A stretch of DNA of 64,000 nt from Octopus sinensis (lineage: Eukaryota): positions 42,284,001 to 42,348,000 of the forward strand of contig NC_043013.1 of assembly GCF_006345805.1 (NCBI RefSeq), in the 5' to 3' direction. Positions 1 to 57,188 of this stretch are shown piece by piece (the stretch's first letter is position 1; every line of letters starts with the position of its first letter). Under the pieces are notes generated by a model. The model saw only the letters and a list, made by a program, of their open reading frames with translations, made no database searches and was not told the origin of the DNA. The position numbers were made by a program, and so were the translations under genes.

Positions 1-576
1 ACATACAGCTGTTTACCTACACAAATGAAGATCTATCAGTATACTGTGGTAGGGAACATCTACACCTGTGGTCCACGGACCCCTGGTGTTCCACAAAGGT
101 AGTACTGGGGGTCCATGAACTAAATTCAAAATTTCATATATATATATATATATATATAATAGACCTTTATATAAATAAATAACGTGAAATACACGAAGGG
201 ACGAACAAAAAGACAAACGGGTCATTCAAAGCCTTCATTCTTCAGTCAGAAACTGATCCCTCATCGCAGATTTCGGCTGTTTAATTCTGAGATCCGCTCT
301 GAATCAGCCAGCCACAGAAGGAAAGAATGAAACGCAACAGAGACGAACATGAAACGAAAAATCTTTTTTGGGGACAGTAACGGTTAAAAACATGGATGAC
401 ATAGGCGCCCTACGGCTTTGAGACAAACAGAGAGACACAAAAACAATATCAACAGCGTGGAAAAAATTACCTTTTCGGTGATGAGACACATGTTGTTAAG
501 GTTAAGCATATTAAAAGGGGGTCTGTCTAGTTGCTGAATTGAGCATTTTTACAATTCTTTTGTTTTAATATTGCAG

Positions 577-4298: not shown

Positions 4299-4436
4299 TT
4301 ATTTACATTTGACGGATATTTGTCCTCATCTTGTTTGTTAACACGTTTTGGCTGATATACCCTCCAACCTTCATCAGGACAAATATCCATCAAATGTAAA
4401 TAATGCACATAATTCCTGATCCCTTAAATATAGAAC
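4299..4436. mobile_element. Short fold-back non-autonomous retroelement with decayed hammerhead (same family as 56124-56456)
   Basis: 11-bp direct flanks aagattgtcac (4288-4298, 4437-4447). Internal inverted repeat 4299-4326 vs 4377-4403. Minus strand reads CTGATGAaggttg..cagccAAAAC. Confidence 0.7.
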
Positions 4437-21469: not shown

Positions 21470-22670
21470 TAAAACCTGAAATATGAGGACACTGGTGATT
21501 ATCTGCCTCGGTTACAGTAAATCTACAAAAGAGGGTGAGGAAAAGAAAGGTGATATTAGCACTTAAATAGTGGGTAAGTACAATCGTGTGTATATATATA
21601 AACACTTCAAACGATCACACTTTCAACAGTACAACCTAAGGGTCTCTTTTAGCTGCGCCCCCAATATTAAGAGCATTCCAATTAACACCCCTAGGCCACG
21701 AACGGTGGTAGGATGTTCATGCAGGGTTTACAACAGATGCCCAGTGGGAGACCATTGCGAAACTGAGGGAGTCGTATATGAAGCTAAAGTGGTAATCGAC
21801 CCTGGTAGTAACAGCAGCAGCTTTGCCAATGACTATTACAGCAGCAGGAACCCGAGAAGAAGACATAGCATCACCATCGTCAATGATAGCAATATTAACA
21901 ATGACAGCATCCCGAACAGAAATAGTAGCAGCAACATCGCTAATGATGACAATATCAACAGCGATATCAGCCACCTCGATAGCGCCGATAACTGCTCCAA
22001 CAACAGCAATAACACCACCACCGATTATGTCCCCTACGCTAGCACTAACAGCACCAATATCAGCGTCAAGAGCGGAAGCAGCGGCATCAACGTCAACAAA
22101 AACAGCGTCGTAAACAAAGGAACACGAAAATACACCGGCTGTTCCGGAAACACGTTCAAGCAGCGCCTCGCCAACCACAGATCCTCTTTCAGGATCTGTG
22201 AGACGAGATTTCCTACGTCCTTAGCTAGCCATGTATAGTGGCTGGAAGACGAAGGAACTCCACACGTAATATCATGAAAGATCTTAGAAATTCCAGGCCC
22301 CTACATCTGTGAGACTAAACGTTGTAAGCTGTGCCTTGCCGAAAGAACGAGGCTTTAAAGGACTCCCTCGACCCGGGGAACATCCTTAACTCCAGAACAG
22401 AAGTTTCTGGACCCTGCTTGCACTTCAAAAAATTACTGCTGACGTTCTGGGATCCAGAAACTAAGAGGGTCAATTATGAATACCAATCAAAGGGAGACAA
22501 TAACTTGGTGTTGACAAATAGTAACGAAGTTTTTTTCTCCTCCATTTCTAGAGAGGCCATAGGCCAACGGGTTTAGGGTCTGAAGAAACGCTGTAAAGCT
22601 AAGCGCTTTATGGACGTGAAACCCCGAGTAACCCCATAAACCGGCTATATCTATATTTATCTTTCTACAT
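21460..22670 (+). mobile_element. Penelope-like element 3' remnant (Penelope/Poseidon-type GIY-YIG endonuclease plus pLTR)
   Basis: Translates LRVSFSCAPNIKSI...CSCR...CP..DHC...GVVY...YTG.SGNTFKQRLANHRSSF...TSLASHV*W..., C.LCLAE, NILNSRTEV...C.H. Stops and frameshifts present; (TA)n at both flanks. Confidence 0.85.
22570..22642 (+). ncRNA. Type I hammerhead ribozyme in Penelope pLTR
   Basis: Stem I ggttta-gggt / accc-ca-taaacc. Core CTGAAGA at 22580-22586. Stem II acg-ctgtaaagc / gctttatgg-a-cgt. GAAAC at 22618; cleavage triplet GTA at 22628-22630. Confidence 0.8.
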
Positions 22671-37074: not shown

Positions 37075-39585
37075 AGAAGATAAAAACGGAAAATACGCAC
37101 ACTTACATGGTTATAGTATAATTTTTAATGTATCGACCGGTTTCGCAATCGCTATTCATGATACAATGTTTAATTTATATGAAAATGTATTTTTTCTTAA
37201 GAAGAAATTGGGTCCATGTTGTTTGAAATGAAATTCACGAGTGAATGATTTTACAAGTTGACAACTAAAGGGAGGTAATTGGTTGTTATTATTGTTATTG
37301 TTGTGTGTAAGGGAGATAACTGTTTAGGTTTTGGGTGGGAAATAAATGTGTACAGAAAGGAGACAGGTTTAAGAAAAAATTAAAAAAGGGGGCCTTGTTT
37401 AGTACAGTGATGTAATATGTAAAAATATAAAAATTAGTTATGCATGCTTATTAAGACGTGTTTTGTATTTTTCAATGAAAAAAGTTTCTTTATTTAAGCG
37501 TTCTAGTTGAGAGATTGTGTCTTTGCCCTGGTAGAAAAGGAAGACTAAAATTTGGTTTGATGTTACCTGCACATTTTTCTATGTGTTCACTAAGAGGAAT
37601 TTGTCTGTATTGCGGGAAACGGATTTGCTCCTTATGCAGAGTGATTCTCTTCCTCAAAATTAAACTCGTTTGTCCAATGTACTGATGACTGCAACCCGAG
37701 CAGGTTATTACATAAATTAGGTTCTCAGAGGCACAGGTGAAACTAGTTTTAATTGTGAACCTCTGTCCTTGTTTGAAAAGGAAATCCGAGCCTTCAAGAA
37801 GGTGGGGGCAGGTTCCACAGTTCGGGCGTCTACATTTTTCAACCGTTGGTTTCGTGGTTGTTTTGTAAAGCTTCGCATTTGTTAGTAGTCTCTTTAGCGA
37901 TTTGTCTTGTTTTTTGCATTTGATGAGTTTGTGTGTTTTCAGGATGTCGTTCATTTTTGGATATCTAGTTAGTAAAGGGAGAGTTTGCACAATAGTGTTG
38001 AATGCCTCACTGTTTCTGGGGTTGTGTGTTGATATAAAGAGTAATGTTTTGGTTTGAGGTATGGTGCTATTTCTTTTTGTTCTTTGTGTTTTTGTGTCTA
38101 ATTGTTTGGCACGTTTAATTCCCTCGTCGATAAGAGAGGGTGGATATTGTCTTTCAATAAGTGTTGTTTTGAGGTCTTGAAGACGAAGGTCCCGAGTTGT
38201 TCTATCAGACACTATTGTGCAGATCCTTTTTGCTAAGTTAAAAGGGATGTTTATTTTTATGTGTTTCGGGTGGCATGAGTTAAAAAGAAGATATTGTTTT
38301 GCGTCAGTTGGTTTATAATAAATGTCAGTTATGATTTCATTGTTGACTTTTTTTATCATGATGTCTAAAAATGGAAGTTGTTCTTTATTATATTCCATTG
38401 TGAATTGAATGTTACTATTTATGTCATTTAGTGTTATTTTGAAATCCAAAAGTTTGTCGATGTTCTCCTTTCAGATGATAAAGCAGTCATCTAGGTATCT
38501 CTTCCAATTTTCTCTTATGTAGAGGTAAAATGGTTAACCATATTTCTGAAGTGATACTTCATATAAGGTGAATTCAAAATAACCAATTATTAGGTTCGCA
38601 AGAACAGGAGCTGTTTTCGTCCCCATCGCAATTCCGCATTTCTGACGATAGTATGTGTCATCAAATAGGAAATAATTGTTCTGAAGTATAAATTTTAAGG
38701 ATTCAATAATAAAGGTCTGGTTTAATCGTTCCGAGAGCACTTCGGGGTACTTTTCCAACAAGAATTTAATTGCTTTAATTCCATAGTCATGGGGGATGTT
38801 GGTGTAAAGATTGATAACATCGAGGGTGACCAATACTGCTTCTTCATTAATCGTTTTTGGTAGGTGTTCTAACATGTCTAAATCATCCCTAATGAAGCTT
38901 TTGATGTATTTCAGCAAGGGCTTCAGTAGGATGTCTAGAACATTGCTCAGTCGGTGGGTTTCACAGGCTGGCCCAGCTACAATGGGTCTTAAAGTCAAGT
39001 CTTCTGGCGTTTGGATGTTTATATATTTGCCTGGTGATTGTTTGCAGGCTTCATTGATTATCTCGCTCTTGTGTATTTTAGGGAGGCCATAAAAAAGACT
39101 GGGTTTACATTTGAAGCTCGTGATGTAGTCTGTTTCTTTTTCTGTCAGGCCTTTTCCATGTAGGAGAATTAAGGATACAAGATTTTTCATGGTTTTTTGT
39201 TGTTTATAGTTTATAATTTTTTCGTAGAAGGCTTTGTTTTCTAATATGGAAAGTACTAGTTTTTTATAGTGTTCTGTGTCCATCAAAACTACAGCACTTC
39301 CTTTGTCAGCTTCTTTAATTGTCAGATCTGTGTCGTTTTTTAGTTCAGTCAGATTTTTCCATTCTAGATTGTTGAGGTCAGGATTAATTTTTCGTTTAAT
39401 GGATGTGTAGGGGAAATTTTGGATATGGTTGCAGTAGTCATCCAGTGTTTTATTCCTACCCTTATGTGGGAGGTAATTACTTCTGTTTTTGACTAGTGAT
39501 TCATCTTCGTTGTCGTAGTCAGTTAGTGCTTCTGCGAGTCGTAGTTTTCTGCAGAATTCTGAAATATTGTCTTTAATTTCATACA
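37075..39585 (-). mobile_element. Penelope-like element, Neptune-type (RT + Cys linker + GIY-YIG), 5'-truncated and frameshifted
   Basis: IKEADKGSAVV, FYGLPKIHK, LRPIVAG, LDVINLYTNIP, YRQKCGIAMG, RYLDD, LPFLDI, DIYYKPT, SCHPKH, CRRPNCGTCP, FTCASENLIYVITCSGCSHQYIGQT. Flanked by (TA)n. Confidence 0.93.
37129..37165 (-). ncRNA. Minimal hammerhead ribozyme with A3-U8 core variant
   Basis: Minus strand: TGTATC-ATGAATA-GC GATT GC-GAAA-CCGG-TC-GATACA. 6-bp stem I, palindromic stem III, GUC site; located in the PLE 3' end. Confidence 0.75.
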
Positions 39586-40105
39586 TATTATATATATATA
39601 TATATATATGTTTGTGTGTCTGTGTTTGTCCCCCAACATCGCTTGACAACCGATGCTGGTCGATTACTTCGACTTATCGGTGTTCAGCCGGTACCTTATT
39701 TTATGGACCCTGAGAAAACAGAAGGTAAAGTCAGTCTCAGCAAAATTTGAACTCAGAATGTAAAAAGCCGTGAGAAATGCCGCTAAGTATTGTGTCCGAC
39801 GTGTTAACGATTTTGACAGCTCACAATCCTACTACATACAATATTAGCCACATCTTTAATATTAGAACAACAACTAGTACAACAACAAAAATTACAACAT
39901 CAACGGCATCAGCTGCAACAACAATATCGTCACCGTCAACAACAACAAACGCGTGAACTATTAAAATGGCGCCTGTTAGTCTCGTTATCTGCTAAACAAT
40001 CGACTCGTGTTACGACAAATTGACCGGTGTAAAATGATACGATATGAAATTAGGTCCGGATTAGGGTAGACGACACTCAGGAATCATATCTTACTGAAGT
40101 TATGT

Positions 40106-55563: not shown

Positions 55564-56123
55564 CTTTCAGCTGTACGACAGAATTAAGACATGTGCGAAT
55601 GTAACAACACTAAAAGAGAAAGTCGTTCTTTCGAAGTTGAAAAATAATATAAGAAAACAAAACAAACCAGGGGCTGAAAGAAATTCTATGATGAGAACCT
55701 TAAAAAGACCCAACCAAGCAACCCAGTAGTCAGGCAGTAAAAGGATGGGTAGTCAAACAAGGAGGATTGTCACGTGGTACCTATAAGGGAGTAGAAAGAG
55801 AAAACTGGTTATAAAGGGTAGAGACGATGGCAGAGAGGGAGGACGAGAGAAGGGTCGTATAAAGAGAAAACAGAGTAGGGATAGACGAAACGAAACGAAA
55901 GAAGTAAGGAATGTTGGGGAATGATAGATATAAAGAAAGGGGGAGTGTGGAGATAGAAAGGGAACATGATGGAGCATTTTTTTTTTACCTATGAATCCCG
56001 CTGATTCCTTATTTTATTCAGACCCTCCTGGCCATTCGATGTCTAAAAATCATATTTTTATAATTAATTAGGAAATGTATAAAATAATTGTTAAAATAAT
56101 TTTTGTTGAAGTATAACCAATTT

Positions 56124-56456
56124 CAGTTCTATATTTAAGAGATGGGAAATTTCGAACCTGCGTTTTCATTCCTAAGGTATTTTTAGATATTATTATTGTC
56201 CAGGTCACTGCTTGGAATCGAACTCAGAATCTTGGGGATTAAGAGCGATTCCAAGCAGTGACCTGAACAACAACAACGACGACGACGACAACAACAACAA
56301 CAACAACAACAACATAACATCGAAAAATACCTTAAGAATGAGAACCCAGGTTCAAAATTTCCCCAAGACACCTGATGAAGGCTGGAGAGCATATCAGCCG
56401 AAACGTTGTGTTAACAACAAACAAGATGAGGACAAATATCTGTCAAATGTAATGTA
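56124..56456. mobile_element. Short fold-back non-autonomous retroelement carrying a hammerhead
   Basis: 12-bp TSD tataaccaattt (56112, 56457). Inverted arms 56144-56220 vs ~56245-56363. HHR at 56367-56412. Confidence 0.8.
56367..56412 (+). ncRNA. Minimal type I hammerhead ribozyme
   Basis: GACAC-CTGATGA-a-GGCTG gagagcatat CAGCC-GAAA-CG-TT-GTGTT. Palindromic ACGT stem III and GUU site. Confidence 0.8.
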
Positions 56457-57188
56457 TATAACCAATTTATTTTACATAAATTTTAAGAAAAATCATACAG
56501 GCGCAGGTGTGACTGTCTCGTAAGAAGCTTGCTTCCCAACCACATGGTTCCGGGTTCAGTCCCACTGCGTGGCACCTTGGGCAAGTGTTCAAAGCCTTGT
56601 GAGTGGATTTGGTAGTCGGAAACTGAAAGAAGCTCTTCGTGTGTATGTGTGTGTGTATATATATTCATGTGTGTGTGTATTTGCCCCCCCCCCATCGCTT
56701 GACAACCGATGTTGGTGTGTTTACGTCCCCATAACTTAGCGGTTCGCTCATGAACTTAACGTGCATTTAGCTGAGTGTTCCACAGACACGTGTACCCTTC
56801 ACGTAGTTCTCAAGGAGATTCAGCATGACATAGAATAGGACAAGGTTGGCCCTTTGAATTACTGGGTACTACTTTTTGTCAGCTAACTGATATACATACA
56901 CCACCTCGTAATATATATACATATATGTATGTATGTATGTAAATATCGAACGAAGAGAATAAGTACTCAAGATCGCATTGATGGATAAAAATTTATTTGT
57001 GCATTAAGGCTACCATTGGTTTCACGGGAAGGAAGTCCTCGAGCCAATATTACATTGAACATTGGTGTTCGTCTCCATAGTGGCTGGAGATGAACACCGA
57101 CACTTGATAGTTAAGAGATGCCATACCATAAAAACAATGGCAGCCTCAATACACAAATTATATTATATATATATATATATATATATTA

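Follow-up and report, generated by a model that had tools for sequence, protein, structure and literature searches.

Among described Penelope-like elements (PLEs), PAc of Anolis and the Penelope/Poseidon elements come closest to the octopus repeat analysed here. The accessible portions of their descriptions report a single ORF that joins an RT to a C-terminal GIY-YIG domain (PMC11167929, PMC8557442), and the octopus element is built in the same way. As in PAc, its hammerhead overlaps the start of the ORF inside the pLTR (PMC11167929, in the part available), and as in Penelope/Poseidon PLEs an inverted, 5′-truncated copy is present, with a tail of 30–40 nt at one end (PMC8557442, likewise in part). 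The two end points of the octopus family match two internal RT start sites of PAc, and according to the accessible text of PMC11167929 the PAc protein cuts both strands and also extends them. Inverted scraps of pLTR with minimal hammerheads are themselves already known (PMC4209133; PMC8557442, in the part available). Unlike the pLTR of Penelope/Poseidon PLEs, however, the octopus pLTR opens with a tRNA-like head bearing A and B boxes, most copies start at this head, and the sense strand is without runs of four T (T4).

In the Schistosoma repeats Sm-alpha and Sj-alpha, a tRNA-related Pol III promoter and a hammerhead likewise occur together in a short repeat, but these repeats are tandem and non-coding and an efficient ribozyme frees their monomers (available text of PMC6765202 and PMC2770079), whereas in the octopus a coding element carries the unit as its terminal repeat, and the copies are inverted and end off the cut site. 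The TRIMp3 elements Cassandra, Helenus and Ajax resemble the octopus repeat in having a small-RNA-derived Pol III promoter inside a terminal repeat; they differ in being, as far as the accessible part of PMC10886601 describes them, non-autonomous LTR elements of <1.3 kb, whereas the octopus repeat is part of an autonomous PLE whose ORF has ~860 codons. Metazoan non-LTR retrozymes share with it a type I hammerhead and a tie to PLE pLTRs, and the accessible parts of the sources (PMC7761336, bioRxiv 10.64898/2026.07.22.740005) do not mention a tRNA head for animal retrozymes; unlike them, the octopus family is without tandem monomers or cleavage-defined ends. In the literature as far as its text was available, we found no report of a tRNA-headed pLTR or of a Pol III-driven autonomous PLE, and no such detail in work on octopus repeats; Repbase, Dfam, subscription papers and supplements may hold the family.

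The window, by which we mean the whole 64,000-nt stretch of Octopus sinensis DNA that was analysed, carries an insert that a sequence-only reading had proposed to be a self-cleaving SINE or retrozyme moved by PLE machinery. We found that this copy is a dead, head-to-head, internally deleted pLTR, ordinary debris and not a separate SINE. What is unusual is the family and not the window copy: its 5′ ends cluster at the head, and its sense consensus has no T4 runs. We consider it probable that the insert stems from an autonomous Penelope/Poseidon PLE whose tRNA-derived A/B-box head likely acts as a Pol III promoter.

Anatomy of the window insert

The layout that had been read from the letters is present (Table 1): 333 bp lie between two copies of the TSD TATAACCAATTT and contain a large inverted duplication, with arms at 56144–56193/56314–56363 (88%) and 56190–56220/56246–56276 (90%). 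As RNA, the insert folds with −118 kcal/mol, z −12 against 100 shuffles. The minimal hammerhead is also as claimed, with helix I GACAC/GTGTT, core CTGATGA and helix II GGCTG/CAGCC; it has one extra A, and its GAAAC is followed by GTT without a loop III. Only this one hammerhead survives in the copy, and in the inverted arm 108 nt including the hammerhead are deleted between the tail and +148. Other details needed amending. The minus-strand B box GAGTTCGATTCC exists, but it lies partly inside the inner arm of the duplication and not simply in the hairpin loop, and the insert is not purely non-coding, as part of it is the open 5′ end of the element’s ORF. In the forward arm, a deletion of ~30 nt removes most of the B box, and by alignment to the family no A box is kept on either strand of this copy. 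An Rfam search matched neither a hammerhead nor a tRNA, returning only hairpin-type miRNA matches far below cut-off, so the hammerhead and B-box calls rest on consensus matching and alignment. Read from left to right, the copy runs TSD, inverted +277..+257, +148..+105 and +86..+38, junction, forward D-arm remnant, +55..+238, TSD.

Table 1. Features of the insert, in window positions; family coordinates take the start of the head as 0
Feature	Position	Strand	Basis
Left TSD, 12 bp	56112..56123	+	sequence reading
Inverted arm, outer: extreme 3′ tail of the pLTR, family +257..+277	56124..56144	−	21/21 to family reference
Inverted arm: family +105..+148, ORF start region	56145..56188	−	41/44 to family reference
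Inverted arm: 3′ half of tRNA-like head, B box (56214–56225) and start of (AAT)n, family +38..+86; without A box	56189..56237	−	45/49
Junction and forward arm: short D-arm remnant TTAAGAGCG, ~30 nt deleted, family +55..+75; without A box	56238..56266	+	20/21; read against other copies
(AAC/GAC/AAT)n spacer from head to ORF start, variable length	56267..56315	+	sequence and other copies
First 39 codons of the autonomous element’s ORF, hammerhead inside	56338..56454	+	same N-terminus runs into RT-endonuclease ORF in tandem copies
Minimal type I hammerhead, predicted cut after 56407; single copy, no cis partner	56367..56412	+	features per PMC4209133
End of the forward arm, without tail, at the shorter family end point (about +240, one of two)	56413..56456	+	family alignment
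Right TSD, 12 bp	56457..56468	+	sequence reading

The window holds other repeats as well. At 4299–4436 is a second head-to-head copy of the same pLTR family, consisting of hammerhead and tail parts only, with an 11-bp duplication AAGATTGTCAC, the tail on its forward arm and the short end on its inverted arm. At 56499–56760, 30 nt past the right TSD, lies a SINE copy unrelated to the insert, which we assign to a distinct and abundant family of tRNA type. ORF pieces of another Penelope-like family, with ordinary T-run content, are found at about 21570–22240 (+) and 37490–39670 (−), and the two minus-strand pieces at the latter position have 29–36% identity to the tRNA-headed family.

The unit as pLTR of an autonomous Penelope-like element

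The family is large in the genome (G000, 2.72 Gb). A first search with the insert gave 2,639 candidates, and the 22-mer just 3′ of the hammerhead has about 10,900 (10,899) exact genome matches versus 0 for a reversed-pattern control, so the insert is not a product of chance. At one locus (L005), an RT thumb and a GIY-YIG-type region lie directly 5′ of a complete tRNA-like head. Searching with this ORF end, in a query that reached 6 nt into the head, yielded 3,630 candidates, of which 40 were scored and the best 30 loci examined; in 30/30 the ORF end is followed after ~30 nt by the tRNA-like head, and in 23 of these loci, as judged by eye, (AAT)n and some or all of the hammerhead region come next. 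On the other side of the unit, the family’s 3′ tail leads into the ORF in tandem copies, with 170 matches to the tail-to-ORF junction. The ATG of the ORF is at +124 and the hammerhead at +153..+198, thus within the first codons, and a further locus (L265) begins 2 nt before the head and reads spacer, ATG, hammerhead, tail and ORF in succession. Since the ORF adjoins the unit on both sides, head, (AAY)n, ATG, hammerhead and tail together make up the pLTR of an autonomous PLE. The sequence-only reading had proposed to check whether the 3′ part of the insert matches such a pLTR; the whole unit is the pLTR of a Penelope/Poseidon-type element, and the suggestion that PLE machinery mobilises the tRNA-headed unit is borne out. 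A self-cleaving SINE parasitising a PLE is not supported as stated: the consensus enters a PLE ORF on both sides, the outcome that the sequence-only reading had itself named as contrary to its proposal.

The ORF has about 860 codons in the majority sequence, and in the consensus it appears as frames of 139 + 723 codons with one disagreement at an A-run. The RVT_1 profile scores above cut-off on it (E 1e-10), and it shares 42% identity over 548 aa with a related protein, P0064, in an alignment that spans P0064’s Pfam GIY-YIG match; Pfam GIY-YIG gives no score on the tRNA-headed family’s own ORF pieces. By eye, we recognised DKG, a CCHH motif in the endonuclease and a CxC located between GIY and YIG, but no CX2-5CxxC zinc-finger linker between RT and EN, following the criteria of PMC8557442. 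By the motif criteria in the accessible part of that paper, the predicted protein fits an EN+ PLE of the Penelope/Poseidon type. The features expected of a PLE extend to the repeat, with a pLTR that overlaps the ORF start, copies in both tandem and inverted layout, and a one-sided tail of 30–40 nt, and the hammerhead shows the nucleotide between 9 and 10.1, the G10.1-C11.1 pair and the palindromic C15.2-G16.2 that PMC4209133 gives for minimal hammerheads. Our searches recovered no intact full-length master copy.

The complete A-box/B-box head that had been suspected from the window copy exists in the family: an A box TGGCGTAGTGG and a B box GTTCGATTC are spaced as in tRNA, and (AAT/AAC)n and then the PLE-type minimal hammerhead follow. 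ARAGORN at default settings called 0 tRNA genes in 28 loci, and Rfam likewise gave no tRNA; relaxed ARAGORN settings produced 128 calls in 62 loci, which were mostly junk and were discarded. Judged by its sequence, the head is tRNA-related and not a tRNA, as it has no predicted cloverleaf. Its closest match among 27 tRNA sequences of the genome, which represent six isotypes only, is Arg-TCT (z 8.3), with Ala near at 8.0. Genome-wide there are 6,772 matches to the A box and 3,655 to the head core, and because 29/30 sampled A-box matches fall in the tRNA-headed PLE family, this is not a common free SINE head in G000.

Two smaller observations concern the bases upstream of the head and a cluster of tRNA genes. 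The native bases at −16..−1 (e.g. at loci L131 and L058) resemble an inverted copy of the head’s first bases, as if the join between ORF and head had arisen head-to-head. At locus L368, at least six tRNA-Cys genes lie within 3 kb of G000, one of them with anticodon ACA.

Ends of the copies

The positions at which copies begin were scored on the first 93 of 100 matches listed to a 32-nt head-core pattern that carries no upstream information (90 loci, all on contig C1); a first head search was left out of the counts, its query being biased toward the palindromic junction. We found that 75 of the 93 head-bearing arms break at −21..+31 (73/90 when counted per locus), while 18 extend into the ORF and break there at a steady 0.002–0.003 per nt. 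Breaks at the head would be expected in 13% of arms from the upstream rate, and in 22% even from the pLTR-internal rate. A sample chosen 3′ of the hammerhead (29 arms) gave 14 breaks at +65..+192, 12 at the head and 3 upstream, meaning that 12/15 of its head-reaching arms end at the head, and genome-wide counts of exact 22-mer matches are 4,299 within the head versus 777 just upstream. Breakpoints scored at −13..−21 are mostly inverted heads that mimic the native upstream bases, and these were handled in a separate count restricted to distinct arms whose A-box region is intact (87, of which 18 are long and 69 short). Of the short arms, 68/69 retain at most 7 native bases upstream of the head, which places a sharp edge at −7, 14 nt 5′ of the A box. 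Transcription from a type 2 Pol III promoter would be expected to begin at about this distance from the A box. We are fairly confident, from the position of these ends, that the element RNA would start about 7 nt before the head. For 28 head-start arms no inverted partner was detected.

On the 3′ side, family copies end at two sites, 12/30 at +244..258 and 18/30 at +276..283; the two end points are ~30 nt apart, and both lie 50–90 nt downstream of the cut site (+193). Among 31 loci with inverted structure, TSDs (one mismatch allowed) measure 12–16 bp in 17 and 6–9 bp in 3, and 11 have none. When the two arms of a locus were paired, in a sample made up partly of query-selected loci, they carried the same allele at +63 in 32/33 cases where 16 discordant pairs would be expected, which argues that both arms of a locus come from one source. 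At +119, with query-selected loci again included, 11/28 pairs are discordant.

Candidate Pol III transcription and its alternatives

The sense majority sequence of the element (2,839 nt) contains 0 runs of four or more T, and the antisense strand 31. The number of T4 runs expected is 2.6 by synonymous-codon shuffle (P 0.04) and 5.0 by a third-position composition null (P 0.004); the sense strand is A-rich. Among 79 related loci, 50 have an ORF of 350+ codons; together these hold 480 T4 runs where 432 are expected, and 49/50 have at least one, single sequences being set here beside a consensus. The density is 2.9 T4 runs per kb in 21 related ORFs of similar T content, 4.5 per kb in 19 other ORF pieces from G000 (some spurious, two from another PLE) and 0.58 per kb in 34 decayed pieces of the tRNA-headed family, which are not independent of one another. 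Runs of four G are also absent from the sense consensus (2.2 expected, P 0.09).

A point against is locus L277 (2501–4136) from the metagenome set, one of the nearest relatives (47%), whose longest open stretch, 473 codons, is free of T4 although it has no tRNA head; its 3′ UTR is T-rich.

Judging from the head, the clustered 5′ ends and the missing T4 runs, we lean toward Pol III as the polymerase that would make the element RNA. That Pol III would transcribe the whole ORF is a more tentative proposal, and one we rate as rather doubtful; at the same tentative level stands the full picture of an autonomous coding element transcribed by Pol III from end to end, which may have captured a tRNA promoter, purged T4 from its 2.6-kb frame, had its uncapped RNA translated and given off SINE-like copies by the thousand from its 5′ end, so that a proto-SINE would still be joined to the parent element. 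Counting against Pol III are the only mapped PLE promoter, that of D. virilis Penelope, which is of the LINE-like Inr/DPE type (accessible text of PMC2377424), and the view that Pol III is too weakly processive for long elements (PMC10886601, in the part available).

In the mechanism that we propose, the RNA would start ~7 nt before the head, the element protein would nick both strands of AT-rich DNA, and reverse transcription would begin inside the RNA, 245–280 nt from its start, with cDNAs running off the RNA 5′ end to give thousands of SINE-sized copies. Because copying would start inside the RNA, a Pol III transcript would need no defined 3′ end. Two cDNAs, or one folded-back cDNA, might then join by microhomology or a short palindrome at the head to leave mirror-image inserts, and a read-through RNA on which copying begins in the downstream pLTR would yield the ORF-bearing copies. 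The hammerhead would depend on a partner or on the protein, and would not set the copy ends. Contigs of four presumed-RNA sequencing runs (four organism labels) cover the hammerhead, the head and the ORF end, such contigs being blind to starts, strand and circles. Loose contig ends at the head were not counted, as they coincide with a deletion in the locus compared.

Mobile elements known to be driven by Pol III, in the literature compared and as far as its text was available, are short and do not code for protein (SINEs, Cassandra, Helenus, Ajax, Sm-alpha). If our reading is true, a PLE that combines a promoter of tRNA type with an ORF free of terminators would put the assumed unfitness of Pol III for long autonomous elements to a direct test. 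The family would also offer a genomic read-out of the PLE mechanism: were copying to begin within the RNA, solo pLTRs that end where the RNA starts should be the commonest product, and this is what the copies show. Repeat libraries are likely to class these short PLE ends as tRNA-SINEs.

The head could instead be a passenger, an old fragment of a tRNA or SINE that was taken up into the pLTR of an ordinary Pol II-transcribed PLE, with the RT stalling or folding back at a structured, GC-rich head. Such an origin is in keeping with the degenerate state of the head and with a pattern search that found no A/B boxes 5′ of hammerhead motifs in the 79 related loci, which would make the head a late gain. 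Of 191 RNA windows of 60 nt along the element, the one at the head (−19..+41) ranks first in stability, a small hairpin crosses the head start at −16..+9 (whole-region z only −0.39), and 15/69 short arms join head-to-head at the palindrome; part of the 5′ pile-up could therefore come from stalling or fold-back of the RT. The other 54/69 short arms, however, are without such a junction, and the edge at −7 is sharp, whereas a stall would be expected at the 3′ foot of the head’s stem near +30, where only 4/93 arms break. A passenger head also leaves the missing T-runs over 2.8 kb unaccounted for, and we hold this explanation to be unlikely. The preferred reading, a PLE with a Pol III promoter in its pLTR, differs as well from that of an independent SINE lineage, tRNA-headed and hammerhead-tailed, which would transcribe its own short copies and borrow PLE proteins. 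About 80% of head-bearing arms do start at the head, with a length of 250–280 nt, thousands of short copies have intact A and B boxes, and internal RT initiation would spare such RNAs a defined 3′ end. Yet an autonomous element has this very sequence as its pLTR, and for PAc the accessible text of PMC11167929 states that an RNA must reach past the RT start sites to be usable; inserted copies end at those sites. Moreover, none of 25 polymorphic sites separates 75 head-start from 48 ORF-linked arms (lowest p 0.067), the commonest non-CpG variant occurring in 29/73 head-start versus 15/39 ORF-linked arms, so the short copies share masters with the long ones; this comparison left out the mis-anchored locus L239, and a minor SINE contribution would escape it. 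Outside CpG sites, coding and spacer parts alike are ~95% identical to the reference, and the hammerhead core is 96.6% identical, with 77.5% at N7, a free position whose T or A is the only common non-CpG core variant and amounts to a D/E change in the ORF. The SINE reading thus stands insofar as most head-bearing copies begin at the head like a SINE, but not as a distinct lineage, which we judge very unlikely.

Under the preferred reading of a PLE with a Pol III promoter, the ribozyme does not define the copies, as it would in a retrozyme, where hammerhead cleavage frees monomers that are circularised and then copied. The type I hammerhead is present, and animal retrozymes have been proposed to derive from pLTRs (accessible part of bioRxiv 10.64898/2026.07.22.740005). 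The octopus copies, though, are single or head-to-head and never tandem monomers in the loci seen, the window copy holds one hammerhead, and the 3′ ends fall at the two sites given above and not at +193. We regard a retrozyme as barely credible, and this part of the sequence-only reading finds no support in the two end sites. Among the 29 arms chosen 3′ of the ribozyme, 1 starts at the cut site, in agreement with PAc, for which cleavage by the hammerhead is dispensable for insertion (PMC11167929, in the part available).
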